A stretch of DNA of 64,000 nt from Candidatus Omnitrophota bacterium (GCA_028707125.1 JAQTUX010000002.1:16355-80354), one strand, 5' to 3'. Counted from the stretch's first letter, positions 4,515-40,073 are shown. Notes: generated by a model not told the origin, from the sequence alone. A program made the numbers and translations.

Positions 4515-5281
4515 TATTTACTCACTCCTCTTGAATTGTTGACTATTGCCGCGAACGACTCTGCCTCAAGGCTGGCGCCTCCCACAAGCGCTCCGTCAAT
4601 ATCCGCTTGAGCCATTAACTCGCGCGCATTAGCCGGCTTAACGCTGCCTCCGTACTGAATACGCACGCTGCCGGCAACATCATCATTATACAACTTTGCC
4701 AGCAATTTGCGAATAAAATTATGCGCTTCCTGCGCCTGCTGCGGGGTGGCGGTCTTGCCTGTGCCTATCGCCCATACCGGCTCATAGGCAACCACAATTC
4801 CAGCCGCGTCTTCCGCGGAGATCCCATCAAAGGCGCCCTTTATATGGCTCTCTATGATGGCGAAGGTCTGGCCTTTTTCCCGCTGCGTGAGGTTCTCTCC
4901 CACGCAGGCAATAGGCGTAAGCCCTGCTTTCAATACCGCCTTCACCTTTTTGTTCACCGTCTGATCTGTTTCGGAAAAGAACTGCCGCCTTTCTGAATGC
5001 CCGACAATGATGAATTTTGCCCCGGCGTCCTTTAACATCGGCGCGGAAACCTCTCCCGTGAAAGCGCCGCTGTCTTCCCAATAGCAGTCCTGCGCTCCAA
5101 CCTGTATGTTTGTCTCAAACAACGCCTCGGCAACCTCAGCCAGCGCCGTAAAAGGCGGACAGACCACCAGCTCTACTTCTTCCACGTCCAGAAGCTGCCG
5201 CTTAAGGTTATTCACCAGCTCAAGCGACTCGGCGATGGTCTTATTCAATTTCCAGTTACCGGCTATTATCGGCCTTCTCAT
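4514..5281 (-). CDS. tpiA: Triosephosphate isomerase.
   Basis: [15 protein letters not shown] and the AYEPVWAIGTGKTAT TIM signature. Confidence 0.95.
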   Translation of the reverse strand: MRRPIIAGNWKLNKTIAESLELVNNLKRQLLDVEEVELVVCPPFTALAEVAEALFETNIQVGAQDCYWEDSGAFTGEVSAPMLKDAGAKFIIVGHSERRQFFSETDQTVNKKVKAVLKAGLTPIACVGENLTQREKGQTFAIIESHIKGAFDGISAEDAAGIVVAYEPVWAIGTGKTATPQQAQEAHNFIRKLLAKLYNDDVAGSVRIQYGGSVKPANARELMAQADIDGALVGGASLEAESFAAIVNNSRGVSK

Positions 5282-6462
5282 TATTTTTTGTCCTTCAGTG
5301 CCGCGATGCCGGGAAGGATTTTTCCCTCCATAAGCTCAAGAGATGCCCCGCCGCCGGTTGAGATGTGGGTCATTTTGTCTTCCAGTTTAAATTTGGCTAT
5401 TGCCGCCGCGGTATCGCCGCCGCCGATTATCGTGGTGGCTCCCAACGCGGCTATCAGGTTGGCTATCTCTTCTGTGCCCTTCTTAAAAGAATCCCATTCG
5501 GAAACCCCAAGCGGGCCGTTCCATACTACTGTCTTGGCGCCTTTTAAGGCGGCCTTGAACTTTTCTATTGTCTTTGGCCCGATATCAAGGGCCATCAGGC
5601 CTTCGGGGATATCCTCGGAGTCAATAACGTGGGGCTCTGCCGAGGCGTCAAACCTGTCAGACGCTACATGGTCTACAGGAAGGGCTATGTTCACATTCTT
5701 TGTCCTGGCGTCGTCCAGGATCTTCTTGGCGATATTTACTTTATCCGGCTCAAGCTTGGAACTGCCGACATTCTTGCCTAAGGCAACAAGGAAGGTGTAG
5801 GCCATTCCTCCGCCGATTATGATGCAGTCGGCCTTGGGCAGCAGATTTTCGATCACACCTATTTTGTCGGAGATCTTGGCGCCGCCGAGGATTATCACGA
5901 AGGGCTTTTTGGGTTTATCCAGGGCGCCGATAAGGTACTCTATTTCTTTCTCCAGCAGGAAGCCGGCTACCGAAGGCAGGTATTTTGTAACGCCTTCTGT
6001 TGATGCGTGCGCTCTATGGGCTGTGCCGAAGGCGTCATTGACGAATATGTCTGCCAGGCCTGCCAGTTCTTTGGCGAAGGCAGGGTCATTGGCTTCTTCT
6101 TCGGCGTGGAATCTCAAGTTCTCCAGCAGGATGACTTTTTCTTTCGCGGCATCGACTTCTGCCTTGACTTTGACGCAGTCGTTGAGTTTTTTCACGGGCA
6201 TATTCAGGAGTTTGTTTAATCTCTCGGCTACGGGCTGTAAGCTGTATTTTGCCTCCGGCTTGCCCTTTGGCCTGCCCAGATGGCTCATCAGGATTAACTT
6301 TGCCGCGCCTTTGTCCAGGATGTATTTCATTGTGGGGACTGCCGCGCGTATTCTGATGTCATCGGTGATGTTCAAAGATTCATCGAGCGGCACATTAAAG
6401 TCCGCCCGCATAAGCACTTTTTTGCCTTTCAGGTCAATGTCTCTAATAGTCATTTTATCCAT
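5281..6462 (-). CDS. pgk: Phosphoglycerate kinase.
   Basis: [27 protein letters not shown] aligns to the Pgk N-terminus. The likely start is the ATG at 6462, with GGAGG 7 nt upstream. The ORF-track start at 6531 is a GTG inside an upstream hairpin and is probably an over-extension. Confidence 0.93.
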
Positions 6463-6520
6463 AGTCATACCTCCGAAAGAACATATTTTACGCCAATATG
6501 TCTTTTTGTCAATACTTTCT

Positions 6521-6600
6521 CCTCTACACACTTACGTGTGTAGAATCGTCTATCTTCCAAGCTTACCATGCCCCACACGTAAGTGTGGGGTAGCATTTCG
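6521..6600. repeat. Dual-hairpin intergenic element, copy 1: tctacacacTTACgtgtgtaga, a roughly 28-nt spacer, then ccccacacGTAAgtgtgggg.
   Basis: Two perfect 8-9 bp stems with 4-nt loops. A near-identical unit recurs at 26425-26503, and a single-hairpin version at 46711-46730. It lies upstream of a TTGACA-16-TAAAAT promoter for pgk. Confidence 0.7.
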
Positions 6601-6766
6601 TTCTAGGCAGCGGGGCCTGTCTTTGGACAGCCCCACCCCGTGCTCATTACCATAACGGACGGGAGAACTCCGCGCGGGGCGGGGCGCCCCGTCCAAAGCC
6701 ACCCGCTGAGACATCAGCGAGACATCCTCAACGTCCCTCGAAACCCAGCCAAGCCATCCGCTACAA
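6596..6766. repeat. GC-rich palindromic repeat, copy A (REP/MITE-like), the left boundary of the low-GC cassette.
   Basis: cctgtctttggacagccccaccccgtgctcattac ... gaactccgcgcggggcggggcgccccgtccaaagccaccc is near-identical to the reverse complement of 8966-9068. It contains internal inverted sub-repeats (ctttggac...gtccaaag). Confidence 0.75.
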
Positions 6767-6907
6767 TAATCTGTCGGCACCAAAACAAAACGGCGCCAAT
6801 TTCTCAGCGCCGATAAGTGTCACATTTTGTGACACCTTAATATTTCTTCTATAACTCGTTAGGGGTAATTAGATTGCGTAAAGCGCCTGAAGGATTAGCG
6901 ATTAGGA

Positions 6908-8131
6908 TTATACGGTAAATCTTTCAACAGTAGTCATATCTATAATCCCAGAACTAATATTCTTCAAAATGATAAAAGGTTTTAATAATGGATTTTTAAA
7001 TCGATATCTGTATCGTTTAGGTTTACCTATCTTTTCTAAAACATCTCCTCGATCGGCACTACATAATTGACTTAAATTATACGCGAAATAAGAAACAGTC
7101 ATCGTCGTCCTTTCGGTTATATATTTAAGAGGGGCTAAAATATCCATTGCACGGAAAGTTCCGTAATCATCTACAGGTGCCAAAGCACAAGCAAGCAAAA
7201 CTTCGCTAAACATTGTTTTCTTTGAAGCTATAGTTGCTTTTTGATACAAATCTCTTATGCTTTCTTGTGTATCATCTAAGGCCTGTTCTATTGCCATTTC
7301 AAAATCTGCTGAAGTGATTTCATTTCTTTCACTAATAATAGCTTGTTTAGCACAATATTTAGATAACAAATGAGTATAATGCGGAAATCCTTGAGATAGA
7401 CTTGCAATGCGATTTTTTATTTCCTCGTTCATGTTGAGCGCTAAAATACTAAGACCCTTATTTATGATCTCCTTGAGTTCTTCACGAGACATACGTTGAA
7501 GAAAGACTTGCCGAAGATTTCTTTCAATCGAAGCGTGTTCTCCTATTAACTCATTTACATTATGTGCAACGCCAACTATAACTAAAGTAACGTTAAATAA
7601 ACTGTCGGAAAAAGCTTTAATAATATCTGAAAAAAGTCGCTTAGTTTTAGTATCGTCTACTCTATCAAATTCATCAATAATTAATATTATAAATTTCGAA
7701 ATCTTCTCGAAAATATGTACAACATCATCTGGATTTATTGGCTTATCTGGAGAAAGAAAGCCATTAAGAGAAAAGGATTTTAACTCTGTATCTTTACCAA
7801 AGCCAAGCTTAGCCTGCTCTGAGGTTATATATATCCGCTTAAGCAATTTTCTCCAGATAGCTGAAAAATCATCATTGGTAACGCAGTTTACTTTAACAAC
7901 TATTTGAGCAGGTAATAACTCATTAATTATATTCGATAAAGAAGTCTTTCCAACCCCCCTCTCTCCGTATAAAATAGCATGACGTCCTTTTTCGTTTATG
8001 CTTGCATAAACTGCATCAATTTGCGATATTCTCCCTGCAAATAAATCTTTCTTATCAATAGGTGCGGATGGTGAAAATATGGAATCTAATAATATAAGTT
8101 TTTCTGTCTTAGGGTCGATTTGTTGATCCAT
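6908..8131 (-). CDS. AAA+ ATPase of the ATPase_2 (Arch_ATPase, COG1672-like) family, with a C-terminal DUF234-like domain I take to be a winged helix.
   Basis: Walker A GERGVGKTSL and Walker B IILIIDEFD. The C-terminal KPKRYRYRFKNPLLKPFI resembles the DUF234 motif. The gene is AT-rich relative to its flanks and has an AAGGGAGGA RBS. Confidence 0.7.
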   Translation of the reverse strand: MDQQIDPKTEKLILLDSIFSPSAPIDKKDLFAGRISQIDAVYASINEKGRHAILYGERGVGKTSLSNIINELLPAQIVVKVNCVTNDDFSAIWRKLLKRIYITSEQAKLGFGKDTELKSFSLNGFLSPDKPINPDDVVHIFEKISKFIILIIDEFDRVDDTKTKRLFSDIIKAFSDSLFNVTLVIVGVAHNVNELIGEHASIERNLRQVFLQRMSREELKEIINKGLSILALNMNEEIKNRIASLSQGFPHYTHLLSKYCAKQAIISERNEITSADFEMAIEQALDDTQESIRDLYQKATIASKKTMFSEVLLACALAPVDDYGTFRAMDILAPLKYITERTTMTVSYFAYNLSQLCSADRGDVLEKIGKPKRYRYRFKNPLLKPFIILKNISSGIIDMTTVERFTV

Positions 8132-8236
8132 GAGTCCTCCCTTTTTATGCAGAATAAATTCTCCAGCCGCTTTACATTACTTCCGTTACCACAAGAAATT
8201 ATTTCAATGAGAACCGTCCCCGTTACACGTATATTT

Positions 8237-8764
8237 CTATTGTAATTCATCTCTGCTGCCTACTTTAAAAAGCTTTGTAATACGGCTATCAGTTCTTAGT
8301 TTTAAATTCTTATCTCTAGCAATATCTATCATAAATTTTTTTACTGCTTTAAAAAAATCTCTGGTAAAACGTGGTATGCTTATAAGAACTAAATCTTTCT
8401 CTTTAGAGGGGTTATAAATATGTTCCGAACCATTATGATAAACAAAGATTTTACAGCTTTTCGTTTCACTTAAACGTGATTCCACTCCATATCTATGAAC
8501 AATTCCGCACCTTGCTCCATATATATCTATACTTCTATATTGATATGATTGCTGTAAATCTGTTTTCATATATTTTTCTACCCAATTAATATAATCTTTT
8601 CGCTTAACTTCCTTTTGTGCCAATGGCATTGCTAAAAAAGCCATCGCGTCAATTGCAGAAAGAGTAAGTATAACTGAACCAGCTACAATACCATTATTTT
8701 CCGCTTTTTTAATATCTCCACAAATACCATCAACTATAATCTCTATATAAAGACTTTTAGCCAT
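8237..8764 (-). CDS. Hypothetical protein of 175 aa, co-located with the ATPase in the low-GC cassette.
   Basis: Clean ORF with AT-rich codon usage matching the neighbouring ATPase. An upstream TTGAGC-16-TATAAT promoter is present. I recognise no family. Confidence 0.5.
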   Translation of the reverse strand: MAKSLYIEIIVDGICGDIKKAENNGIVAGSVILTLSAIDAMAFLAMPLAQKEVKRKDYINWVEKYMKTDLQQSYQYRSIDIYGARCGIVHRYGVESRLSETKSCKIFVYHNGSEHIYNPSKEKDLVLISIPRFTRDFFKAVKKFMIDIARDKNLKLRTDSRITKLFKVGSRDELQ

Positions 8765-8857
8765 ATAACAATCCGAATAACTTACTAATTGTTCATCTTT
8801 TCTATTATACCATCCCGCGGGCGGGGCTCAAATGGAATTTGGAGTTATCCACAACTG

Positions 8858-8929
8858 TAGGGGAGGTTTAAACCTCCCCTACCACTTATATAATATAAAA
8901 GGTGGTCGCAAATTGCGACCACCTTTTAT
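8858..8929. terminator. Pair of perfect hairpins (gtaggggaggtttaaacctcccctac, then ataaaaggtggtcgcaaattgcgaccaccttttat). The second looks like a bidirectional intrinsic terminator.
   Basis: Perfect 9-13 bp stems. The second stem is flanked by A-runs and T-runs on both sides. Confidence 0.55.
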
Positions 8930-8940
8930 ATTATTTCGTA

Positions 8941-9093
8941 GCGTCTGGCTTGGCTGTGATTGCCTCAGTGGGTGGCTTTGGACGGGGCGCCCCGCCCCGC
9001 GCGGAGTTCACCTATGATGAATTAGTAATGAGCACGGGGTGGGGCTGTCCAAAGACAGGACCCGCTGTCTCGAAACACAGCCAAGACAGACGC
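8941..9093. repeat. GC-rich palindromic repeat, copy B (REP/MITE-like), the right boundary of the low-GC cassette. Its own termini are inverted: gcgtctggcttggctg ... cagccaagacagacgc.
   Basis: The reverse complement matches copy A over about 35 + 40 bp with one or two mismatches. It carries 16-bp terminal inverted repeats and an internal imperfect palindrome. Confidence 0.75.
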
Positions 9094-9095
9094 AG

Positions 9096-9127
9096 AAAGT
9101 GTTCCTGAGCGAGAAAGGCAACGGGTT
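9096..9127. repeat. 32-bp direct repeat DR1 (tgagcgagaaaggcaacgggttcattgcatag), followed by a UUCG-type hairpin at 9131-9160.
   Basis: Matches 9849-9880 at 29 of 32 positions in direct orientation. The two copies bracket the protease module. Confidence 0.7.
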
Positions 9128-9185
9128 CATTGCATAGAGATTGCTTCGCCCCTTCGGGGCTCGCAATGACGGAAGCGGCAATTCG

Positions 9186-9584
9186 CTATGATTTTAACGA
9201 AAAGGTAAACTTCGGATAATCTATGGTAAGCAAAAACTTACTCAAGAAACTCTTTACGCCGAGCAGAGAAATGGAAAGATTTGGCAGGAAATCTATTAAA
9301 ACATCCTTAATTGTAAAATCATAAACCTGCAAGCAAACTGTATGCGCATAGGCAATCGTTTCTCCGTTGCCGGTTTTTACCTTTTTAGGATGCCCTTTTT
9401 GCAAATTATGACCGACAATAGCAGCAAAATCGGCTGGGAAGGCGCATTCGTCCGCTCCAGTATCAATTATTCCGTAGGTTCTTAATCTCTTATTTGTATG
9501 AGGATTTATAATAGTTACAGGGAGGGCTACTCGTGGTATATCATTATGGCCAATTTTAATAAAAGGATGATTAACAATATCCAT
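9186..9584 (-). CDS. Retropepsin-like (clan AA) aspartic protease.
   Basis: GIIDTGADECAFP carries the D-T-G-A catalytic signature of retroviral-type aspartyl proteases. The protein is 132 aa, consistent with a single-domain homodimeric retropepsin. Confidence 0.7.
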   Translation of the reverse strand: MDIVNHPFIKIGHNDIPRVALPVTIINPHTNKRLRTYGIIDTGADECAFPADFAAIVGHNLQKGHPKKVKTGNGETIAYAHTVCLQVYDFTIKDVLIDFLPNLSISLLGVKSFLSKFLLTIDYPKFTFSLKS

Positions 9585-9784
9585 TAGTAGATTTGCGCCA
9601 TGCCTTTTAATGGCACAAATACCACAACGGGATTATTATAGCCCTTTTTTACTGCCTTTTTAAAGGCCTCCTGAGCAGTATCGCCGTAGCCGATAACCCT
9701 GGAATCATCAAAATCCCGCATCGCTACATATCTGCCGTTATATCTATTGCCTTTTATAAGCGTCTTTATCATTTTTATCACCAA
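9584..9784 (-). CDS. Small 66-aa protein that I recall as DUF5678-like, encoded upstream of the protease with an ATGA stop/start overlap.
   Basis: The sequence, including RYNGRYVAM ... VVFVP, resembles what I recall of the DUF5678 family. It is translationally coupled to the protease gene. A TTGGCA-17-TATAAT promoter ends about 10 nt before the ATG, so the transcript is probably leaderless. Confidence 0.5.
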   Translation of the reverse strand: MVIKMIKTLIKGNRYNGRYVAMRDFDDSRVIGYGDTAQEAFKKAVKKGYNNPVVVFVPLKGMAQIY

Positions 9785-9848
9785 TTTAATTATACAACAA
9801 TCTTGCTAATTTGCCAATGGTTTTCTTCTACAGGCAGGGCCCCTCTCT

Positions 9849-9880
9849 TGAGCGAGAAAAGCAACGGGTTCATAGCACAG
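9849..9880. repeat. 32-bp direct repeat DR2 (tgagcgagaaaagcaacgggttcatagcacag).
   Basis: Direct copy of DR1 at 9096-9127. Confidence 0.7.
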
Positions 9881-9890
9881 GGGTTATAAA

Positions 9891-9917
9891 CTTGAGGTGC
9901 CAAATTGGCACCTCAAG
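9891..9917 (-). terminator. Intrinsic terminator downstream of phoU.
   Basis: Perfect 11-bp stem with a 5-nt loop (cttgaggtgcc aaatt ggcacctcaag). On the minus strand it is followed by TTTAT, 15 nt after the phoU stop. Confidence 0.7.
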
Positions 9918-9931
9918 TTGGGGCGAGGGAT

Positions 9932-10600
9932 TTACTGCAATTTCTCGGGATGATGCCGGACGACTTCTGCCTGGACCATATAGATCACGTCCTCGGCGAT
10001 ATTGGTAGCGTGGTCGCATATGCGCTCCAGGAAACGGGCTATCAGCAACAGCTGGACAGCCCTGGGGGCCGTAGAGCCGTCCTTGACCATGTAATCTTCT
10101 ATGAGCTCCTTTTGTATCACATCGCGGAGCTGATCGGCCTGCGAATCAGACAACAGGACCTGCTTTGCCAGGGCGATATCCCCTTTTACGAACGCGTCTA
10201 TGGACATCTTTACCATATTCTGCGCCACAGCCGTCAGCCTGGGTATATCTATAAGCGGCTTTAACAGCGGCTTGTCCACTATCTCAAGTGTCCGCTGCGC
10301 TATATCCACGGCAATGTCCGCTATCCTTTCCAGTTCAGCGTTTATCTTCATACCGGTGGTGATAAAACGAAGATCCTTTGCCATCGGCTGATAGCGCGCT
10401 ATCAGATCAATGCACTTCTCATCCACGGACAATTCCAGCTTATCAATATCGGCGTCGTTGCTTATGACGCTCTTTACCATATCCTTATCCCGGCCCTTCA
10501 GCGCCTCTACTGATCTATAGATGGCCTCTTCTGCCAGGGCAGCCATCTTCAGGATCTCCTTGTTCAGTTCTTTCAACTCCTGGTCAACATGCCTTTCCAT
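9932..10600 (-). CDS. phoU: Phosphate transport system regulatory protein PhoU.
   Basis: Two PhoU repeats. The gene sits at the 3' end of the pst operon. Confidence 0.9.
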   Translation of the reverse strand: MERHVDQELKELNKEILKMAALAEEAIYRSVEALKGRDKDMVKSVISNDADIDKLELSVDEKCIDLIARYQPMAKDLRFITTGMKINAELERIADIAVDIAQRTLEIVDKPLLKPLIDIPRLTAVAQNMVKMSIDAFVKGDIALAKQVLLSDSQADQLRDVIQKELIEDYMVKDGSTAPRAVQLLLIARFLERICDHATNIAEDVIYMVQAEVVRHHPEKLQ

Positions 10601-10617
10601 TTTATACCTCCGATCAT

Positions 10618-11373
10618 TTATCCATACCTTCCGGTGATGTAATCTTCCGTGCGCTTGTCCTGCGGCGCGGTGAATATCTCCTGCGTCTTCCCGAACTCTA
10701 TCAGTTCGCCTAAAAGCATGAAGCCGGTATCGTCTGAAACGCGCGCCGCCTGCTGCATATTATGCGTGACTATTATTATAGTATAACTATTCTTCAATTC
10801 ACGCATTAATTCTTCAACCCTCGCGGTCGCCTGCGGGTCCAGGGTAGAACAGGGCTCATCCATTAACAGCACATCCGGCTTGACAGCGATAAGGCGGGCT
10901 ATGCAAAGGCGCTGCTTCTGCTCCAAAGACAGGCGCAATGCCGGCTCAGCCAGCCGGTCTTTTAATTCATCCCAGAGAAGCACGCCTTTCAAGCTTGTTT
11001 CAACTATCTCGTCCAGGCCGTCCCTGGTTATATTTTCCGCGTGTATCCTTTCTCCGAAAACAATATTCTCATAGATCGACAGCGGGAAAGGGTTGGGCCG
11101 CTGGAATACCATCCCTATCTTCTTGCGCAGGGCCACCAGGTCCGCGGCAGGGTCCAGGATATTGCCGCTGTCAACCAGGACCTGCCCGTGCGTGCGCACG
11201 CCATCGATCAGGTCATTCATCCGGTTGAACACCCTGAGCAAAGTGGACTTACCGCATCCTGAAGGGCCGATTATAGCAGTGATCCTGTTGGCCTCAAAGC
11301 CGGAGTTTATATTCTTCAAGGCGTGGAAGCTGCCGTACCAAAGGTTCAGGTCTCGCGTGGCGATCTTTGCCAT
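10618..11373 (-). CDS. pstB: Phosphate ABC transporter ATP-binding protein PstB-like, a paralog with a degenerate signature motif.
   Basis: Walker [10 protein letters not shown] and Walker [12 protein letters not shown] are intact. The ABC signature reads LSLEQKQRL instead of LSGGQQQRL. Confidence 0.85.
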
Positions 11374-12119
11374 TATCCGAATTTTCCCCTGATGTAACCG
11401 TCCGTGCGCTTGTCCCGCGGCGCGGTGAACATCCTGTCTGTATTGTCCAGCTCAACGAGCTCGCCGTTCAAGAAGAACGCTGTCTTGTCTGAGACCCTGG
11501 CTGCCTGCTTCACGTTGTTGGTCACCAGGACAATGGTGAATTTCTCCTTGAGCTTGACCATGGCGTCTTCCACCTTGGCGGTAGAGATAGGGTCAAGCCC
11601 TGAACAGGGTTCGTCAAACAGTATCACCTCGGGGCCGACCGCCAATGTCCTGGCAATGCAAAGGCGCTGCTGCTGGCCCCCTGATAATTTGAACGCTGAT
11701 TCGCCTAACCTGTCTTTGACCTCTTCCCAGAGATAGGCCTGCCGCAAGGTCTCTTCCACCCTCTCTTCCAATCTCCTCATTATTTTTTCCCCGTGTATCC
11801 TTAAACCGTACGCCACATTCTCAAATATGGATAAAGGCAGAGGCAGAGGCAGCGCGAAAACCATGCCTATCTTGCGGCGCAGTTCCTCTATTTCAATCCC
11901 GCGCACATCCTCTCGCTCAAATTCTACTGCTCCGGCCGCCCTGTAATTGACGTTGAGCTCATTAAGGCGGTTAAGCGTGCGCAGGAAGGTCGTCTTGCCG
12001 CTGTTAGCCGGCCCTATCACGCCCAGTATCTCATTGGACTGGATCTCCATATTGAGATGCCTTATGGACTGCAGCGGGCCAAACCATACATTCAGATCGT
12101 GTATCTCGAATTTTACCAT
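11373..12119 (-). CDS. pstB: Phosphate ABC transporter ATP-binding protein PstB (canonical).
   Basis: Walker [10 protein letters not shown], signature [13 protein letters not shown] and Walker [12 protein letters not shown]. Confidence 0.9.
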
Positions 12120-12964
12120 TTCTTTTTCTTCCTGAACTTATAGCGTATTATTATGGCCACCAGATTCATTATCAAGACCAGCGCCAGCAGAACAAACGCC
12201 GTGCCATACCTTACCTTCTCATCAACGTTGGGCACCTGCGTGGAAATTACGTAAAGGTGGTAAGGCAGGGCCATTGCCTGGTCAAAGATGGAATTGGGCA
12301 ATTTCGGCAGATAAAATGCCGCCACGGTAAAAAGGATCGGGGCTGTTTCTCCCGCGGCCCTTCCCAGCCCCAGGATCGTCCCGGTCAATATGCCGGGTAT
12401 GGCGTTGGGAAGGACGATGTGCCTTATGGTCTGCCATTTGCTGGCGCCCAAAGACAAACTCACCTCCCGAAATGACTGCGGAACGCTCTCCAGCGCCTCG
12501 CGCGAGGTCGTGATGATCACCGGAAGGATCATTATCCCCAGGGTAAGCGAACCGGAAATGATCGAGGCGCCGAACTTGAAGAATACCACAAAAAGCGCCA
12601 GGCCAAAAAGCCCGTAGACCACCGAAGGCACGCCTGCCAGGTTCACGATAGCCAATTTTATGATGCGGGTAAGATGGTTATCTCTGGAATATTCGCTCAA
12701 GTATATAGCTGCCAGAAGGCCTATGGGCAAGGCGAAGATAATGGCGCCCGCTACCAGATATATCGTCCCAACGATCGCCGGGAATATGCCGCCGGCGCGC
12801 ATACCCTGCCTCGGTATGTCCGAAAGGAACTGCCAGTTGATCGCGGGCAGGCCTTTCTGGATAATGACCACAACGATCAGGCCAACCGGCACAACTATCA
12901 GCAGCGTGGCCAGGAATAAAAAGAAAAAGGCGATATTTTGCGTTCTGTAGGAATTCCTCATCAT
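12113..12964 (-). CDS. pstA: Phosphate ABC transporter permease PstA.
   Basis: Multi-TM permease with the PstA-type loop (LGASKWQTIRHIVLPNAIPGILTG). Confidence 0.9.
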   Translation of the reverse strand: MMRNSYRTQNIAFFFLFLATLLIVVPVGLIVVVIIQKGLPAINWQFLSDIPRQGMRAGGIFPAIVGTIYLVAGAIIFALPIGLLAAIYLSEYSRDNHLTRIIKLAIVNLAGVPSVVYGLFGLALFVVFFKFGASIISGSLTLGIMILPVIITTSREALESVPQSFREVSLSLGASKWQTIRHIVLPNAIPGILTGTILGLGRAAGETAPILFTVAAFYLPKLPNSIFDQAMALPYHLYVISTQVPNVDEKVRYGTAFVLLALVLIMNLVAIIIRYKFRKKKKW

Positions 12965-13848
12965 TGCCTCTTATGCAGGCAGAGGTCCGCGGTCACGTTA
13001 ATGGCAAAGCTGATGACAAACAGGACTATGCCGACGGCGAACAAGGCAAAATAATGCTCGCTGCCTACTACCGCCTCGCCCATTTCAGCGGCAATGGTGG
13101 CGGTCAAAGTCCTGACCGGCGCTAAAATGCTGTTGGGCATGGCCGCGGCATTGCCGGTGATCATCATTACCGCCATTGTCTCGCCGATCACCCTGCCTAT
13201 CCCCAGCATGATCGCCGCGAGTATGCCGCTTGATGCCGCCGGAAGCATCACCCGCCATATCGCCTGCCAGTGTGTAGCGCCCAGGGCGAGGGCGCCTTCC
13301 TTATATGTCTTCGGCACCGAATACAACGCGTCTTCGGCGATGGAAACTATCGTGGGCATGGCCATAAATGCCAGCATTATTGAGCCGGATAAGGCGGTCA
13401 GGCCTGTCGGCAGATGAAATACCGCCTTTACCAGGGGGACGAGCGTTACCATACCGATAAATCCCAGGACAACGCTGGGAATGGCCGCCAATAATTCGAT
13501 ACCCGCCTTAAGCGTCTCTTTGGTCTTTAACGGGGCTATCTCGGCTATATAGATCGCGCAGCCCACGCCTATCGGTAGAGAAATTACCGCCGCCCCCAGG
13601 GTAACCAGCAAAGAGCCGAGGATCAAAGGCAGTATCCCCAACTGCGGCGGCTCGGATATCGGATACCAGCTCTTTCCCAGGAGGAATTTAAAAGGGCCTA
13701 TGGTCTTAAATACCGCCAGCCCTTCCTTGAGCAGGAACAGAAAAATCAGCGCCACAAAGAATACCGAAGCCAGGCCGCAGATGAATATAAGTTTTTCAAT
13801 AAGGGATTCTTTGAACTTGCGCATAGTCCTATTTTTTAACCGGAACAA
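12961..13848 (-). CDS. pstC: Phosphate ABC transporter permease PstC.
   Basis: Multi-TM permease with the PstC-type loop (LGATHWQAIWRVMLPAASSGI). Confidence 0.9.
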   Translation of the reverse strand: MFRLKNRTMRKFKESLIEKLIFICGLASVFFVALIFLFLLKEGLAVFKTIGPFKFLLGKSWYPISEPPQLGILPLILGSLLVTLGAAVISLPIGVGCAIYIAEIAPLKTKETLKAGIELLAAIPSVVLGFIGMVTLVPLVKAVFHLPTGLTALSGSIMLAFMAMPTIVSIAEDALYSVPKTYKEGALALGATHWQAIWRVMLPAASSGILAAIMLGIGRVIGETMAVMMITGNAAAMPNSILAPVRTLTATIAAEMGEAVVGSEHYFALFAVGIVLFVISFAINVTADLCLHKRQ

Positions 13849-14683
13849 AATCGGTCTTCAGCACGATCTCCTGGCCTTCTTTTGAAAGAATAAAATCAAT
13901 AAATTTTTTGACCAGCCCATCCGGCTCTCCGTTAGTGTATATGAATAAGGGCCGGGAAATGGGATAGGCGCCGCTCAAAACATTGTCTATCGCGGGCTCA
14001 ATATATTCCGACTTTTCGTCTTTGGCCACGGCTACCGGCTTTTGCTTAGGCGAAATATAGCCCATTCCATAATAACCGATGGCGGCGGGATTGCCTGCCA
14101 CCTCATCGGCGATCGCCTGAGAAGATGAAAGCATCAGCGCCGTAGGGGCAAATTCCTCTTTGCTGCCAGGGTCGTTCTTCCTTAATACGTGCTCCTTAAA
14201 ATAAACATGGGTGCCGGAATTGACTTCGCGCGAAAGCACCACTATCTTCTCATCCCCGCCCCCCACCTGCTTCCAGTTAGTAACCCTGCCGGTAAAGATA
14301 TCGGCCAGCTGCGCCAGGGTAAGTTTAGCGGCGGGATTAGCCGGATTCACTATCACCGCGAGGCCGTCTAATCCGACTTTTATTTCGTTGGGATTGATGC
14401 CTTTCTGCCTGGCAAGGGCGATCTCCTTTTCCTTGATATTCCTGGAACTCATGGCTATATCGCAGGTGCCGCTTATCAGGCTTGACAGGCCTGTGCCTGA
14501 GCCGCCGCCCGTAACCGCCACAAAATCGCCGGCGTTATCCTCCATATACTTTTCAGCCCAGGCCTGGCCCAGGTTCACCATCGTATCCGAGCCTTTGACC
14601 TGTATGGAATTTTCATCCCTTGCCGCGGACGCGGAAGCCGCGAACATGGCCGCGATCAGAACAAATGCCCATGTTTTAAACAT
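13829..14683 (-). CDS. pstS: Phosphate-binding protein PstS.
   Basis: Signal peptide plus a PBP-like fold. The N-terminal region after the signal peptide reads GSDTM, a PstS hallmark. Confidence 0.9.
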   Translation of the reverse strand: MFKTWAFVLIAAMFAASASAARDENSIQVKGSDTMVNLGQAWAEKYMEDNAGDFVAVTGGGSGTGLSSLISGTCDIAMSSRNIKEKEIALARQKGINPNEIKVGLDGLAVIVNPANPAAKLTLAQLADIFTGRVTNWKQVGGGDEKIVVLSREVNSGTHVYFKEHVLRKNDPGSKEEFAPTALMLSSSQAIADEVAGNPAAIGYYGMGYISPKQKPVAVAKDEKSEYIEPAIDNVLSGAYPISRPLFIYTNGEPDGLVKKFIDFILSKEGQEIVLKTDFVPVKK

Positions 14684-14723
14684 ATTTTCCTCCTTATTTT
14701 TTGTTTTCTTTATTAATTATATC

Positions 14724-14773
14724 GTATCTATATTAGATATAGATGAAGTTAATGTAAAATCTATGTAAAATCT
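14724..14773 (-). promoter_or_regulatory. Pho-box-like operator and promoter upstream of pstS.
   Basis: Two perfect 11-bp tandem direct repeats (minus strand: TAGATTTTACA TAGATTTTACA, then the degenerate TTAACTTCATC). The TTTACA half-sites have 11-bp periodicity, like PhoB/PhoP boxes. The palindrome atctatattagatatagat and a TATAAT -10 follow. Confidence 0.6.
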
Positions 14774-15425
14774 AGAAAACAAGCTTTAGCTTAATTCCCA
14801 GCACATTGGCGTCTTTCCACTCCCCTGAACTCCTGCTGCTTTGCAATAAATAGTAAACCTCACTTTTTATATTCCCGTTAATGGCAAGGCCAAAACCGGA
14901 ATACAGCCTGTTCCTGCTTAGCGAGCCGTCATCTAATTCAACGAAGATTTCATCCGCCACATAAGGCTGGATCTCAAACTTTGTCAATTTCCAGGGAAAC
15001 TTTACGGCAAACTTATTACGGTACCTCCAGGTATCAGCTTGATAATCGAAATGCCGGTACTCAATGCGGTTACGGTCGTCAAGTTTAAATCCGTATAATT
15101 CATATTTTAGCGCCGCGTTCAAATGAGGCCTGTTCTCATCTTTGAATTTACCTTTCTTTTTTTCATAGGCCTGCCTGTAGGCGATCCCCAAATCAAGATG
15201 CTTGTTCAAGCTGTATATAAAACCCGCGTCATAGTGGTGATAATAGAAATCACCGGCATCATCTCCCCAGCGGAATTCTTCTTCCAGGGTTATCTTTGAC
15301 TCTTTGTTAACCTTAAATTCCTGGTTTTCTGTATGCCATATTTGAAAGTCACCGTCATCATAAGCATAAACCTTTACTGCTAAAACTAAAACCATGCTGG
15401 TTATCATAAAAATAACCTTCTTCAT
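14772..15425 (-). CDS. Small outer-membrane beta-barrel protein (DUF2490-like), a candidate phosphate-starvation-induced porin.
   Basis: Signal peptide MKKVIFMITSMVLVLAVKVYA. The protein has an alternating amphipathic beta pattern and ends in a C-terminal Phe (LKLVF), an OMP signature. A Pho-box-like repeat lies upstream. The likely start is the ATG at 15425, after AGGAGGGG. Confidence 0.6.
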   Translation of the reverse strand: MKKVIFMITSMVLVLAVKVYAYDDGDFQIWHTENQEFKVNKESKITLEEEFRWGDDAGDFYYHHYDAGFIYSLNKHLDLGIAYRQAYEKKKGKFKDENRPHLNAALKYELYGFKLDDRNRIEYRHFDYQADTWRYRNKFAVKFPWKLTKFEIQPYVADEIFVELDDGSLSRNRLYSGFGLAINGNIKSEVYYLLQSSRSSGEWKDANVLGIKLKLVF

Positions 15426-15493
15426 ATTCCCCTCCTTTTTTTTAATCCTGAAATAAGTATACAATGGGCATATTAAATCCGCTTCAAGGAGAA

Positions 15494-15515
15494 GTAAAAT
15501 GCAGGTAAAATGTTT
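15494..15515 (-). promoter_or_regulatory. Pho-box-like direct repeats upstream of the small OMP gene.
   Basis: Minus strand: CATTTTAC ctg CATTTTAC. The same ATTTTAC half-site recurs with 11-bp spacing, as upstream of pstS. Confidence 0.5.
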
Positions 15516-15521
15516 TTGGAG

Positions 15522-16622
15522 TTATTCAGGAAGGGAAAAATGGAATTTTGAGCCCAGGCCTTCGGTGCTTTCCACGCCGACTGAACCGCCGTGGAGCTCA
15601 ACAATGTGTTTAACGATAGAAAGCCCGAGGCCGGTCCCGCCGAGTTCGCGGGAGCGGGCTTTATCTACGCGGTAGAAACGTTCAAAAATACGGGGGGCAT
15701 CTTTCGCGGGGATGCCGATCCCGGAATCCTCCACGAATATTTTTATTTCGCCGCCTGAATACCGGCTGTATATTTTAACCGTGCCGTCCTGCCGGTTGAA
15801 TTTGATCGCGTTGTCAATAAGGTTAGTCATGACCTGGCTGATCTTACCTTCATCCGCCTTGATTAATAAATCCGGAGGCAGATCATTGACGGCTGAAACA
15901 GATCTTTTCTTCAAGTGAGATTTGAAACCCGCCAATATGTCGTCGGCAAGTTTCCTGATATTCACTTCCTTTTTCTCAAGCGCCGCTGCCTTTGATTCCA
16001 GATAAGACAAATCCAGCAGGTCATTGACTAAACTATCCAGGCGGTCGGTGTGATCCTGAATAATCCGCAGGAAATGCCGGCTGTTTTCTTTATCCTCTAA
16101 CGCGCCTTCAAGGAGCGTCTCCACAAAGCCCTTTATGGAAGTGAGCGGCGTCTTTAATTCGTGCGATACATTGGCTACAAAATCAGAGCGCACCTGTTCT
16201 AATTTCCTTATCTCGGTAATGTCGTGTATGACTATCAGGCAGCCGCTTACCCTGCCGTTCTCAAGTATGGGCGAAGCGTTAACCTGGAATATCCGCTGAA
16301 CAGGCCAGACAAGATCAAGTTCCTGAGAAATAAAATCCCCGTTTTTTAATACCTTCTGCATGACCTCTACGATGTCGTTATTGCGGACCGCCTCTAAAAA
16401 AAATCTGCCTTCGCTTTCTCTCTTCAGGATGCCGAATATCTTCTCCGCCGAAGAATTAATGGAAACTATCCTTGTGTCCCTGTTGACTATAATTACCCCC
16501 TCTACCATGCTCTCCAGCACAGTCCGGATAGAATTATACCGCGCCTCCAGCTTGTTCATCTCCTTAGAGGCGTGATCCAGTTCCTCTTTTAATTTTCTTA
16601 TCCTGGCCCTGTCCCCGAACAT
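15522..16622 (-). CDS. phoR: Phosphate regulon sensor histidine kinase PhoR-like (PAS-HisKA-HATPase, no obvious TM segment).
   Basis: H-box SHELKTPLTSIKG, plus N, G1 and G2 boxes (GGTGLGLSIVK). It is adjacent to phoB. Confidence 0.85.
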   Translation of the reverse strand: MFGDRARIRKLKEELDHASKEMNKLEARYNSIRTVLESMVEGVIIVNRDTRIVSINSSAEKIFGILKRESEGRFFLEAVRNNDIVEVMQKVLKNGDFISQELDLVWPVQRIFQVNASPILENGRVSGCLIVIHDITEIRKLEQVRSDFVANVSHELKTPLTSIKGFVETLLEGALEDKENSRHFLRIIQDHTDRLDSLVNDLLDLSYLESKAAALEKKEVNIRKLADDILAGFKSHLKKRSVSAVNDLPPDLLIKADEGKISQVMTNLIDNAIKFNRQDGTVKIYSRYSGGEIKIFVEDSGIGIPAKDAPRIFERFYRVDKARSRELGGTGLGLSIVKHIVELHGGSVGVESTEGLGSKFHFSLPE

Positions 16623-16625
16623 AAC

Positions 16626-17318
16626 TTACTCCTCCGCCTCAAACCTGTAGCCGTAATTTTTCACGGTAATGATCCGCCTTGCCTCAGTTCTTAATTTCGC
16701 GCGCAAAGTCCTGATATGCACATCCACGGTGCGGGTCTGGATTTCAATCGCGTGGTCAAACCCCCAGATGGTATCCAGCAGATAATCGCGCGATAAGACC
16801 CTGCCTTTGGCCTTGATCAGCGTCTTCAATAATTCAAATTCTTTGGCAGTAAGCGCTGCCGTCCTGCCTTTGACAGAAACCAGGATCTTGGAAAAATCCA
16901 TGGTCAAACCCCCTATCTTGAGCACTTCCGGCAGATTCCCTTTATCCTGCACCCTGCGCAGGACCGCTTTCACCCGGGCTATTAACTCCCTGGGACTGAA
17001 CGGCTTGGTGATGTAGTCGTCAGCGCCTAATTCCAAACCCAGGATCTTATCCGCCTCCTGGGCCTTAGCAGTCAGCATAACTATAGGAATTATGGCGGTC
17101 CTGCCTTCCTTCTTCAATATCTTGCAAACCTCTAAGCCGTCTATTCCCGGCAGCATTAAATCCAAAATGATCAGATCCGGGTGCTCTCTCCTGGCTAAAC
17201 TTAATGCGGCTTCGCCGTCATAGCAGGAAAGCGTCCTGAAGCCATCCTTTTTGAGATTATAGTCAAGCATCTTGACTATATCTCTTTCGTCCTCTACTAT
17301 CAATATCTTTTCTTTCAT
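16626..17318 (-). CDS. phoB: OmpR-family response regulator PhoB-like.
   Basis: Receiver domain (DDERDI ... LMLPGIDG) plus a winged-helix trans_reg_C domain. Confidence 0.88.
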   Translation of the reverse strand: MKEKILIVEDERDIVKMLDYNLKKDGFRTLSCYDGEAALSLARREHPDLIILDLMLPGIDGLEVCKILKKEGRTAIIPIVMLTAKAQEADKILGLELGADDYITKPFSPRELIARVKAVLRRVQDKGNLPEVLKIGGLTMDFSKILVSVKGRTAALTAKEFELLKTLIKAKGRVLSRDYLLDTIWGFDHAIEIQTRTVDVHIRTLRAKLRTEARRIITVKNYGYRFEAEE

Positions 17319-17346
17319 TCCGTCTTAACTCCTTTATGGCGCTGAT

Positions 17347-18783
17347 TTAACCGCGGCCCTCTATGTATCTGCTTAAATACCCGCCTGTCAGAGAGTCAAT
17401 GCGGGCAGTCAGCTCATCTATCCTGAGCATCAAATCATCAAATGAGGCGTCCCGCGAACCGGGGACGCCGGTCAGCTTATTCTGAAGCCGCCTTCGCTCA
17501 AAATACAGCCGGTCCAGATCCTCCAATATATCATTCCTTAACTCTACCATAAGGCGCGACCGCACGTCAATGGATGTCTGGTGCTCATTATAGATCCAGT
17601 CACCCAGGTCCCAGGCAAGATTTACATCCCAGCCGTCAGTGCGGTCCCTGGGCCCGGATATTATGTAATCCTTGGTCGCGCTGGTATAGATCTCATATGT
17701 ATCGCTTATTGAGCGGTCATAGCCGATGCTCATTGTGGGCAAGAAGGCGCGCTTCGCGGCTTTCCTGCGCCAATGAGTTATCTTGGCTGGGCTGACCTCC
17801 GCGTACTCTATGGCAGCCCTGTGCAGCTGCTCTATTGTCGGCTCTATTCCAAACACTTTCAGGCGCTCAAACATAACACTGTTACCAACCACGCTGCCGG
17901 TCTGCGCCTGCTGTTCGTAGATACCCTGCCTGTCTATAACAAAATACTCCCTCACGGCCGAGTTAAAGGCAAGGCCTTTTATTTCATAAAACTCCCTGCC
18001 GCTGTCTACCTGTTCAACCGCGTTGTTCGCGTGCCAGAATTTATAAACCGTGTTCCTGCCGGAAACATACAGGCATTGATCATCGCCTGAAGGCGCGATG
18101 CCCGTTATCTCCATTCCGCTGAGAATAGCGACTTTACTTATTAAAATACCGCTGCCTGTGAACTCCAGAGTGTAAAGCCCTGACCTGCTGCCAAGCGCCA
18201 GCCCCGCCTCATCGCCGCCTATAAAACCCAGCGCGTTGACCTCTCCGGGAAGCATTTCTTCCGTGTCCCCGGAGGGTTCGTCGGAGTCCGCCTCTTCATC
18301 GGGGCGGTTTATGCCTCCCAGAAAGATCCTCTCCCAGGACCTGCCGTCATCCTTTGAAACAAACAAACCTTCTTCCGATACGGCATAAACATATTCACCG
18401 GCAACAACCGCCTTAAATACCTCTCCCCTAAGGCCGCCGTAAGCCCTTACCCAGTTCTTGCCTGAATTATGGCTTATATATAAACCGTTCTTTGTGCCGG
18501 CGAATATAAGGTTGGCTTTTAATGCCGCGGATAGCGTATCGCCTTTGTCTTCGGTAAAATAATGAAATATCTTCTTGAACGCGGCTCCGCTGTCATCGCT
18601 GAAATATAACCCCTCGGCAGTGGCAGCCGCTATTAGATCGCCCGTTCCTCCTCCGAATATGACCTGGTTTATATCCTTGCTGTTGACCTGAGACGCGAGC
18701 GAATCCTGCCATTTGACATCAGCGCAAAAGGCCGTGCCGGACAACAGGAGAAAAGATATTACCGCGGCAACGCAGCTCTTCAT
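17347..18783 (-). CDS. Secreted BNR/Asp-box repeat protein.
   Basis: Signal peptide MKSCVAAVISFLLLSGTAFCA, with repeated S-x-D-x-G-x-x-W motifs (SDDSGAAF, SHNSGKNW, SKDDGRSW). The likely start is the internal Met at 18783. Confidence 0.6.
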   Translation of the reverse strand: MKSCVAAVISFLLLSGTAFCADVKWQDSLASQVNSKDINQVIFGGGTGDLIAAATAEGLYFSDDSGAAFKKIFHYFTEDKGDTLSAALKANLIFAGTKNGLYISHNSGKNWVRAYGGLRGEVFKAVVAGEYVYAVSEEGLFVSKDDGRSWERIFLGGINRPDEEADSDEPSGDTEEMLPGEVNALGFIGGDEAGLALGSRSGLYTLEFTGSGILISKVAILSGMEITGIAPSGDDQCLYVSGRNTVYKFWHANNAVEQVDSGREFYEIKGLAFNSAVREYFVIDRQGIYEQQAQTGSVVGNSVMFERLKVFGIEPTIEQLHRAAIEYAEVSPAKITHWRRKAAKRAFLPTMSIGYDRSISDTYEIYTSATKDYIISGPRDRTDGWDVNLAWDLGDWIYNEHQTSIDVRSRLMVELRNDILEDLDRLYFERRRLQNKLTGVPGSRDASFDDLMLRIDELTARIDSLTGGYLSRYIEGRG

Positions 18784-18885
18784 AACAACTCCCCTCGTTT
18801 TATGACCGCCCCTTATTAAACAAAATGGGGCAGGCGGCCTTTCGGCTTCCTGTCCCATTGTTTGAAACTGATGCGGTTAACCTTA

Positions 18886-19911
<1,026 letters not shown>

Positions 19912-33029: not shown

Positions 33030-33032
33030 TCT

Positions 33033-35093: not shown

Positions 35094-35108
35094 AATAACG
35101 CGGCCCGC

Positions 35109-39043: not shown

Positions 39044-39047
39044 AAAC

Positions 39048-40052: not shown

Positions 40053-40073
40053 ATATATTTATTTTATGGATTT

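Follow-up and report, generated by a model that had tools for sequence, protein, structure and literature searches.

In the genome of an uncultured Candidatus Omnitrophota bacterium, a phosphate-uptake operon and a glycolysis operon are separated by an interval of ~3.5 kb (positions 6466-9931 of the 64-kb stretch of DNA that was analysed, referred to here as the window), and the locus raises the question of whether the genes that fill this interval came from elsewhere, by what route, and whether the site is a hotspot for such arrivals. A first-pass annotation had placed two accessory modules of distinct composition between pgk-tpiA-secG and phoU and suggested a recombination or defence-island hotspot. 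Pfam matches identify the flanks as that annotation had them, both on the minus strand:

5281..6465, minus strand: pgk, the left flank (Pfam PGK, 6e-160)
6485..6512, minus strand: sigma-70-like promoter of pgk, TTGACA-16-TAAAAT (consensus scan, 11 of 12 matches)
9932..10600, minus strand: phoU, the right flank (Pfam PhoU, 3e-44)

The pgk gene is the first of a conserved block, pgk-tpiA-secG-opp, whose synteny is retained in all of the Omnitrophota relatives examined, and the stretch homologous to its promoter in relative L091 reads, by eye, as TTGACA and TATAAT. On the other side, phoU is the last gene of a conserved pho block (genes for phoB/phoR-like two-component regulators, DUF2490, pstS, pstC, pstA, two pstB genes and phoU) that is kept in three other genomes (L097, L098, L100); in the source genome the gap-to-pgk space houses the whole pho regulon. 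Like pgk, tpiA, secG and phoU, all four genes of the interval are on the minus strand. They are arranged in two self-contained cassettes, designated A (~6771-8929; genes for a 175-aa protein and a 407-aa ATPase) and B (~9143-9845; genes for a DUF5678 protein and a retropepsin-like aspartic protease), each of which is predicted to have its own promoter and terminator.

Composition of the interval

GC content drops from ~52% to 30-36% over 6800-8800 and is ~38% over 9200-9800. Three of the four interval genes, those for the 175-aa protein, the ATPase and the protease, have the lowest GC among the 63 genes in the window (31%, 33% and 37% overall), and their GC3 values of 18%, 24% and 33% (z = -4.6, -4.0 and -2.9) compare with 58±9% for the window as a whole. 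Tetranucleotide usage, scored over 2 kb at a time, is most deviant at 7001-9000 (z = 5.4). The two proposed modules are indeed extreme outliers of composition, each bracketed by repeats and unrelated to the other in gene content.

Cassette A

6791..6835, minus strand: two adjacent hairpins after the ATPase stop codon (terminator scan)
6908..8131, minus strand: 407-aa Cdc6/ORC-like AAA+ ATPase of the nSTAND1 family (Pfam nSTAND1 and AAA_16)
8237..8764, minus strand: 175-aa protein of an uncharacterised family
8804..8831, minus strand: promoter-like site, TTGAGC-16-TATAAT with an upstream TG (consensus scan, 10 of 12 matches)
8856..8934, no strand assigned: two adjacent hairpins between the cassettes (inverted repeat, 100% complementary)

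The larger protein is a Cdc6-like AAA+ ATPase of the nSTAND1 family, as indicated by its Pfam scores (nSTAND1, 39.2 bits, cut-off 27.1; AAA_16, 38.6, cut-off 32.6), its Walker A (GERGVGKTS) and Walker B (IIDEFD) motifs, and an AF2 model (pLDDT 94) with AAA+ base, lid and C-terminal winged helix that is matched over its full length in Foldseek by Cdc6 (1fnn, 3e-12), SSO1545 (2fna), Orc1 (2qby) and RuvB. Among 46 homologues, G56, R58-S64 (GxRGVGKTS in Walker A) and D153-E154 are invariant and E57 nearly so. With its 407 aa, the protein has neither an effector nor a repeat sensor domain, which sets it apart from the large, multidomain STAND proteins of defence. More than 4,600 homologues occur across phyla, with a patchy distribution that extends to phages; the protein matches phrog_6841 at 7.9e-58, many homologues are on prophage contigs, and they are found in Gordonia phage Cashline and in Mycobacterium phage Kevin1, where the gene has the lysis genes on one side and the integrase and repressor genes on the other. 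At the ~40 other loci analysed the homologues are solitary, with no conserved neighbour found, and at every one of these the gene has a lower GC content than its own locus; two of the loci adjoin tRNA genes (L085, L086), and direct repeats bracket the first of them. Judging from these contexts, the family elsewhere appears to be a single mobile accessory gene, often carried in prophages.

At those loci the ATPase homologues are not regularly accompanied by the 175-aa gene. Its product belongs to a family with 798 cluster representatives at E<=1e-3 and matches phrog_18591 at 1.8e-8, with no sequence match in Pfam or PDB. The AF2 model (pLDDT 96) is mostly helical and found no significant match in a fold search of the PDB. 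An R85-x4-H90 motif is near-invariant, with both residues kept by 90% or more of the 56 sequences compared, and fits the R-x4-6-H that marks the all-alpha HEPN superfamily; the same 56 members had no match to the HEPN families of Pfam, and Foldseek comparisons of the model with the HEPN structures 2hsb, 1ufb, 5yep and 2q00 were not significant (E 3-9).

Of the hairpins that border the two genes, 6791-6812 is followed by a T-run and resembles an intrinsic terminator, and 8890-8934 has a perfect 22-bp stem with A- and T-runs on either side, the appearance of a terminator that acts in both directions and divides the cassettes. The "dual-hairpin units" (6791-6835 and 8856-8934) that had been read as a repeat family are adjacent terminator-type hairpins and are not repeats of one another in sequence.

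The palindromic repeat

6527..6587, no strand assigned: hairpin that separates the left palindrome from the pgk promoter, arms of 23 nt (inverted repeat, 83% complementary)
6601..6764, plus strand: left copy of the palindromic repeat, degraded (inverted-repeat pairs with the right copy, alignment)
8938..9096, minus strand: right copy of the palindromic repeat, intact (inverted repeats, RNA fold)

Cassette A is bracketed by two mutually inverted copies of a ~160-nt palindromic repeat, with arms of 50-52 nt that are 94% complementary. The predicted fold of the right copy is a single long hairpin of ~160 nt (-90.8 kcal/mol, z = -7.8; outer stem 8941-8961 / 9073-9093), and the left copy, with one deletion and one insertion, folds weakly (z about -2). 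Exactly two copies occur in the 64-kb window, none of them outside this locus, as the first-pass annotation had noted; 0 are expected from shuffles. The palindrome is nevertheless not private to the pgk-phoU locus: a core of ~95 nt, alignable with the right copy, is present at three more intergenic sites on metagenome contigs of other genomes (L081, L082=L084, L083), and in relative L091, which is 92% identical, the contig end falls inside the homologous palindrome, which lies as far upstream of pgk (~135 nt) as it does in the source genome. The similarity does not take in the 23-nt-arm hairpin, as blastn of L091 against 6520-6604 gave no match and the sequence there is unrelated. With its multiple intergenic copies and stable hairpin, the palindrome is a dispersed REPIN/MITE-like repeat. 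It shares with REP, REPIN and MITE repeats a GC-rich, imperfect sequence of 95-160 nt, an intergenic location in multiple genomes, strongly conserved arms and a variable apical loop, and differs from them in that two inverted copies here bracket foreign genes and in that no associated RAYT or transposase has been identified.

This arrangement invites the view that cassette A and both palindromes form one cargo element of ~2.5 kb whose ends are inverted repeats of ~160 nt and which is moved in trans in the manner of a MITE or composite transposon. The inverted copies exactly bracket the lowest-GC segment and have no further counterparts in the 64 kb, and the intact copy has terminal inverted stems. 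Even so, we regard such an element as unlikely: the palindrome is equally far from pgk in the closest relative, the copies elsewhere are solo, ~95 nt in length and without cargo, each flank of cassette A is a complete palindrome instead of a half, and no transposase is known for it. Nor is a target-site duplication evident at any of the five copies when read by eye, and no such inverted repeats flank the ATPase homologues elsewhere. We favour the reading that the palindrome is a resident, dispersed repeat whose copies most likely gave cassette A a sequence at which to recombine or land.

A dispersed palindrome could also have misled the assembly, by allowing an unrelated AT-rich segment to be joined in from the metagenome. 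The stretch 6684-8999 is matched at 100% identity by an independent Logan contig (L103, k=31), which on both sides ends inside the exact inverted repeats and so does not confirm the junctions of cassette A; the palindrome is also dispersed in related genomes. We nonetheless consider an artefact very improbable, since a read would be longer than the ~30-50 nt over which the copies agree exactly, the copies differ by adjoining indels, the source contig is 510 kb long, and the relative's pgk contig enters the palindrome at the same place.

Cassette B

9103..9142, plus strand: direct repeat copy A, pgk-side boundary of cassette B (85% identity over 40 nt)
9141..9172, minus strand: GC-rich hairpin after the protease stop codon (sequence read directly)
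9186..9584, minus strand: 132-aa retropepsin-like (clan AA) aspartic protease (Pfam, D-T-G-A active-site motif)
9584..9784, minus strand: DUF5678 small protein (Pfam DUF5678, 38.6 bits, cut-off 23.2)
9789..9817, minus strand: promoter-like site, TTGGCA-17-TATAAT (consensus scan, 11 of 12 matches)
9846..9885, plus strand: direct repeat copy B, phoU-side boundary of cassette B (85% identity over 40 nt)
9889..9919, no strand assigned: perfect hairpin with a 15-bp stem after the phoU stop codon (100% complementary)

With an active-site motif, IDTGAD, in its translation and scores above the Pfam cut-offs (gag-asp_proteas, 29.8 bits, cut-off 28.2; Asp_protease_2, 28.7, cut-off 24.3), the 132-aa product belongs with the retropepsin-like proteases of clan AA. 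The NCBIfam subfamilies TIGR02281 and TIGR03698 were also considered; since the scores are under the cut-offs of both models, the protein is placed outside them. The DUF5678 gene has a probable ATG start at 9772, read from the sequence, which would give 62 aa, and the sequence TAATG contains both its stop codon and the start codon of the protease gene; the two genes are probably translationally coupled. Two small genes with a stop/start overlap, their own predicted promoter and an AT-rich composition recall type II toxin-antitoxin modules; this likeness is one of layout, and we found no literature on DUF5678-protease pairs, whether as toxin-antitoxin systems with published evidence of such action or in any other role.

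The direct repeats at the boundaries, which had been described as 32 bp long, do form a flanking pair, of 40 nt and imperfect, sharing a 24-nt core with one base different; as with the palindrome, the window holds exactly two copies, with 0 expected from shuffles. They would be accounted for if cassette B had entered as a circular intermediate by a single crossover at a short shared site. An identity of only 85% implies that such an entry happened long ago, unless the repeats arose in some other way.

At both phoU and the protease gene, the stop codon is followed by a hairpin and then by the conserved 40-nt repeat, at similar distances of ~45 nt, and all of the genes are co-oriented, features that might suggest an integron-like array in which a hairpin recombination site comes after the ORF of each unit. 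We give this idea almost no credence. The hairpins are perfect short palindromes in which no R''/L'' or L'/R' core sites (RYYYAAC / GTTRRRY) were seen by eye, no integron integrase gene lies within 6466-9931, and the cassettes have their own predicted promoters. The hairpin at 9889-9919 has a homologous palindrome in the closest relative (L096), where it lies within the ORF6N gene downstream of phoU, and the alignment shows three compensated changes of stem pairs.

Comparison with relatives and the hotspot question

The closest sampled relative (Logan SRR33086907, 88-92% nucleotide identity) is the sole close one and is represented by fragmentary contigs, one of which stops 430 nt past phoU and the other inside the palindrome next to pgk. 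DNA similarity to it ends at the phoU stop codon, beyond which a convergent ORF6N gene (Pfam, 3.8e-12) stands in place of cassette B; the absence of the cassettes is thus direct for the 430 nt after phoU only and otherwise indirect. In other Omnitrophota, pgk is preceded by gap, a spermine-synthase-like gene, dnaE, TPR or unknown genes, or a low-GC unknown gene, and phoU is followed by S4_2, GIY-YIG or unknown genes; these neighbours differ in every distant genome examined, and at 67-80% identity in PGK such genomes differ by general rearrangement. The first-pass annotation had named an identical gene content of matching composition in related genomes as the sign of ancestral genes; no relative examined shows the same content at this locus.

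That the cassettes are old, resident AT-rich genes, with relatives differing through ordinary rearrangement, deserves consideration here. The left palindrome is common to the closest relative, the direct repeats have diverged to 85%, all of the interval genes share the strand of their neighbours, and the relatives compared are distant (PGK at most 80% identical in all but one). We think an ancestral origin improbable in view of a GC3 of 18-33% against 58±9%, which has not ameliorated, a loss of similarity to an 88-92% identical genome exactly at the phoU stop codon, and the patchiness of the ATPase family across phyla and phages. The PGK and PhoU of the closest relative are 92-93% identical to those encoded here, as compared to 64% for the best ATPase homologue; no ATPase above 64% was found in any other sample, though the PGK and PhoU of the close relative were.

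A hotspot in the strict sense is a site at which close relatives carry different cargo. The proposal is partly supported: two acquired-looking modules and a content unlike that of relatives accord with it, and turnover at the very same site is at most suggested by the one close relative, whose two contigs are too short to span the site. The suggestion of a defence island finds a partial match of the ATPase to the PADLOC candidate PDC-S59 (1.6e-12, residues 149-298 only), a candidate that is unvalidated and was not found in the literature searched; the other PADLOC matches are weak and confined to the P-loop. The interval resembles genomic islets and "defence islands" in having AT-rich accessory genes between housekeeping blocks, a content that differs from relatives, and one gene whose family is known from prophage variable regions and a defence-candidate catalogue. 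It differs in comprising only two tiny cassettes, without an integrase, a tRNA or a validated defence gene. Its four ORFs (ATPase, uncharacterised 175-aa protein, protease and DUF5678) include no integrase, transposase or relaxase gene, and there is no tRNA or tmRNA gene in the whole window, so the mechanism of integration is one that we infer entirely.

Conclusions

Both cassettes almost certainly came from elsewhere. Their layout, composition, repeat statistics and protein families, and the difference in content from relatives, are observed here, and the manner of their integration and their functions are inferred. The account that we find probable as a whole is that the phoU-pgk interval is a small accessory islet, placed where two conserved operon blocks meet, into which two AT-rich cassettes were acquired horizontally and independently, cassette A at the resident palindrome and cassette B by way of a circular intermediate. 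For the Omnitrophota genome this is an ordinary variable accessory islet and no new kind of system.

Setting and composition of the phoU-pgk junction

Two foreign-looking, self-contained cassettes, each bracketed by repeats, lie between phoU and pgk (window 6466-9931) of a Candidatus Omnitrophota genome, at a junction that varies among relatives. Cassette A consists of genes for a 175-aa protein and an ATPase, and cassette B of a DUF5678 gene and a gene for a retropepsin-like aspartic protease. All real genes within the first 22 kb of the window lie on the minus strand, and the features of the locus are listed here in the direction of transcription.

Features of the locus (window coordinates)
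fmt, two galT-like genes and gap (18886-19896), minus
17347-18858, minus: gene for a 503-aa protein
phoB-like and phoR-like two-component regulator genes, then DUF2490 (14772-15464), minus
pstS, pstC, pstA, two pstB genes and phoU (9932-10600), minus
about 9143-9845: cassette B
9817-9789: promoter-like site of cassette B, TTGGCA-17-TATAAT
9772, minus: probable ATG start of the DUF5678 gene
132-aa protease gene, minus, its ATG overlapping the DUF5678 stop codon (TAATG)
9141-9172: GC-rich hairpin closing cassette B
8890-8934: perfect 22-bp-stem hairpin with A- and T-runs on its sides, dividing cassettes A and B
about 6771-8929: cassette A
8831-8804: promoter-like site of cassette A from a consensus scan, TTGAGC-16-TATAAT with TG upstream
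8764-8237, minus: 175-aa gene, followed by a 105-nt spacer
8131-6908, minus: 407-aa ATPase gene
6812-6791: hairpin with T-run, last listed feature of cassette A
5281-6465, minus: pgk, then tpiA, secG and an opp-type transporter

Having their own promoter-like sites and hairpins, with the 22-bp-stem hairpin between them, the two cassettes each make up a self-contained transcription unit. GC content drops from ~52% to 30-36% across 6800-8800 and to ~38% across 9200-9800. The genes for the 175-aa protein, the ATPase and the protease have the lowest GC among the window's 63 genes of at least 100 aa (GC3 of 18%, 24% and 33%, respectively, as compared to a mean of 58±9%), and no stretch of the window deviates more in tetranucleotide composition than 7001-9000 (z = 5.4), all of which bears out the two compositionally distinct modules described in the first-pass annotation. 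Moderately low GC (~42%) is also seen at 33000-35100 and 39000-40100, spanning a 686-aa ORF and a 334-aa ORF. The DUF2490 gene is likewise low in GC (40%), yet it is kept in the pho block of three relatives (L097, L098 and L100). The 503-aa protein has no significant Pfam match.

Comparison with relatives

The best match of PGK among species-representative genomes is ~70% identical and belongs to Omnitrophota. The tpiA-secG-opp order 3' of pgk is kept in all Omnitrophota relatives examined, and the pho block (phoB/phoR-like regulators, DUF2490, pstS, pstC, pstA, two pstB and phoU) is conserved as a unit. The genes that adjoin these two blocks at the junction, upstream of pgk and downstream of phoU, differ in every relative examined.

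Neighbours of pgk and phoU in other genomes or metagenomes (loci designated by L-numbers)
Upstream of pgk, L005 and L007: gap, directly adjacent
Upstream of pgk, L006: gap, then a 742-aa spermine-synthase-like gene
Upstream of pgk, L003: dnaE
Upstream of pgk, L093: TPR and unknown genes
Upstream of pgk, L092: low-GC unknown gene
Downstream of phoU, L097: 886-nt gap, then S4_2
Downstream of phoU, L098: unknown gene and GIY-YIG
Downstream of phoU, L100: GIY-YIG and a radical-SAM methylthiotransferase-type gene

Close synteny evidence comes from a single relative (L096, Logan SRR33086907) and from 430 nt of its sequence past phoU. Nucleotide identity with the window is 88.5% across pstB-phoU and similarity stops at the phoU stop codon, after which the relative has a convergent ORF6N-domain gene (Pfam 3.8e-12). 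About 45 nt following phoU in the window are homologous to a perfect palindrome within this gene, the rest of which is not retained: the window hairpin at 9889-9919, with a perfect 15-bp stem, corresponds to 2684-2714 of the relative, where the ORF6N coding region encodes NLKSQFVTSSW, and three of the stem pairs carry changes in both arms, leaving the palindrome still perfect. The ATPase had no match above 64% identity in any other sample, though PGK and PhoU of the close relative were recovered. The content of the interval is thus not shared with the relatives examined; the same gene content, which the first-pass annotation would have taken as evidence against acquisition, was not encountered.

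Here the pho regulon (9932-18858) also lies between gap and pgk, which are directly adjacent in L005 and L007, so that 12.4 kb are extra relative to those two loci. On gene order, the distant comparisons show general rearrangement and not repeated insertion at one site. An integration hotspot had been proposed for this locus; the two accessory modules and the variation of the junction among relatives uphold part of that proposal. As a side observation, more than 100 Omnitrophota protein clusters share 85-92% identity with PhoU, whereas PGK matches from the phylum plateau at ~70%, save three closer ones (93%, 80% and 77%); judged by these identities, PhoU is unusually conserved within Omnitrophota. 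An exact look-up with PhoU of the window itself gave no record.

Repeats around the cassettes

The two palindrome copies (6601-6764 and 8938-9096) are GC-rich and mutually inverted, with 50-52-nt arms that are 94% complementary. The right copy is a hairpin of ~160 nt (-90.8 kcal/mol, z = -7.8); in the left copy part of one outer arm is missing and ~28 nt have been inserted, and its fold is no longer exceptional. Cassette B is bracketed by 40-nt direct repeats (9103-9142 and 9846-9885) that are 85% identical, with one mismatch in a 24-nt core. The palindrome and the direct repeat each occur exactly twice in the 64-kb window, as against zero in shuffled controls, so these two families are confined within the window to this locus, as had been claimed; the "dual-hairpin units" of the same claim (6791-6835 and 8856-8934) each consist of two hairpins of the terminator type and form no sequence family. 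An Rfam scan of 6300-10100 gave chance-level matches only, far under gathering scores, a tRNA/tmRNA scan of the whole window gave none, and the direct-repeat pattern was absent from all fetched loci. Three origins considered for the direct repeat were rejected: a tRNA fragment and an attC site on reading the sequence, and a relic of the ORF6N coding region on an alignment that is near random beyond the hairpin.

A palindrome core of ~95 nt is present in four metagenome contigs, representing three distinct intergenic sites and having no further similarity to the window; it was not found in viral contigs. Among the copies compared the arms hardly vary, unlike the apical loop, and this pattern at dispersed intergenic sites is characteristic of a dispersed REP/REPIN/MITE-type element. 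The pgk contig of the closest relative (92% nucleotide identity) starts inside a palindrome copy ~135 nt upstream of pgk, as in the window, which makes the left palindrome a resident element and not one imported with cassette A; the hairpin sequence between palindrome and pgk differs between the two. An independent short-read contig (L103, Logan SRR22315508) is 100% identical to window 6684-8999, with both ends inside inverted exact repeats. Such ends are expected of a k=31 assembly, and the contig confirms the sequence of cassette A and not its junctions. In another locus (L082 205-320, = L084) the REPIN-like repeat directly adjoins a further GC-rich palindromic element that is unrelated to it, which suggests that genomes with this repeat have several families of palindromic repeats.

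Genes of the two cassettes

The ATPase scores above cut-offs for both nSTAND1 and AAA_16 in Pfam and matches phrog_6841 over its full length (7.9e-58). Its match to the PADLOC candidate PDC-S59 (1.6e-12) is restricted to residues 149-298, and a literature search on PDC-S59 found nothing relevant. The AF2 model (pLDDT 94) has full-length Foldseek matches to Cdc6/Orc1, the archaeal ATPases SSO1545 and PAB2304, and RuvB, which imply an AAA+ base, a lid and a C-terminal winged helix. Homologues of ~400 aa number more than 4,600 in many phyla, the nearest non-identical one being 64% identical.

We compared ~40 other ATPase loci (three genomic, two from cultured actinophages and 34 IMG/VR contigs). 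None shares a conserved neighbour, save one near-duplicate pair (L131, L132), and in every one the ATPase gene is lower in GC than its own locus. The settings include a lone ATPase gene between genes for GTP cyclohydrolase I and a dihydropteroate-synthase-type (Pterin_bind) protein (L088); a 7.5-kb island of ~30% GC beside tRNA-Gly and tRNA-Met (L086); Mycobacterium phage Kevin1, where the homologue adjoins a HicB-like gene, with the lysis genes on one side and the integrase and repressor genes on the other; and an Omnitrophota homologue (L085, 62% identical) that adjoins tRNA-Arg (5518-5592) and lies between 43-nt direct repeats (5941-5983 and 7408-7450, 86% identical). A TGGTATAAT -10-like motif occurs in each of these 43-nt repeats, a short way upstream of a gene. 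Given the absence of a conserved neighbour, the low GC and the tRNA and phage settings, the ATPase behaves as a solitary mobile accessory gene. It can be viewed as a candidate NTPase of accessory or defence function whose winged helix would bind DNA, and a defence role is plausible.

The 175-aa protein belongs to a family of 798 cluster representatives (E<=1e-3). It has no match in Pfam, PDB sequences or PADLOC, nor by tblastn against plasmids and phages; the family profile finds nothing meaningful in Pfam or PDB sequences, and a weak PHROG match has no assigned function. The model (pLDDT 96) is mostly helical and has no significant match among PDB folds. HEPN proteins are four of its top weak, non-significant fold matches and an R85-x4-H90 motif is near-invariant across the family, a hint that the protein is possibly a HEPN-like nuclease. 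A conserved two-gene system of this protein and the ATPase was considered and rejected, the 175-aa family being unrepresented within 4 kb of the ATPase gene at all ~40 other loci.

In cassette B, the protease carries a D-T-G-A motif and scores above the cut-offs of two clan AA models in Pfam, and the DUF5678 protein passes its own Pfam model. Neither matched plasmids by tblastn, the protease was not found in viral contigs, and literature searches on the pair, on DUF5678 and on retropepsin-like plus antitoxin returned nothing relevant. From their arrangement the two genes probably form a coupled module.

Possible routes of entry and significance

Cassette B may have entered via a single crossover at a short shared sequence, leaving the 40-nt direct repeats behind, and cassette A by entry at, or recombination between, the resident palindromic repeats. 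The interval has no recombinase gene, so any such enzyme would act in trans. A more ambitious reading, which we consider very improbable, would have the GC-rich REPIN-like palindromes of Omnitrophota serve as landing pads, with foreign cassettes that bring their own promoters being captured between inverted copies; the Rx4H 175-aa protein and the Cdc6-like ATPase would then be an anti-phage system of two genes, not described before, in which the effector is HEPN-like. The interval is an ordinary small accessory islet. It adds one more documented case of gene flux in Omnitrophota, a poorly known and mostly uncultured phylum, and draws attention to a dispersed palindromic repeat family there, to a widespread solitary Cdc6-like ATPase that is mobile and prophage-associated in its behaviour, and to the uncharacterised family of the 175-aa protein, whose fold is predicted with high confidence. 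Current concepts are unchanged, and these findings will be of use mainly in annotation and as candidates for defence-gene screens.
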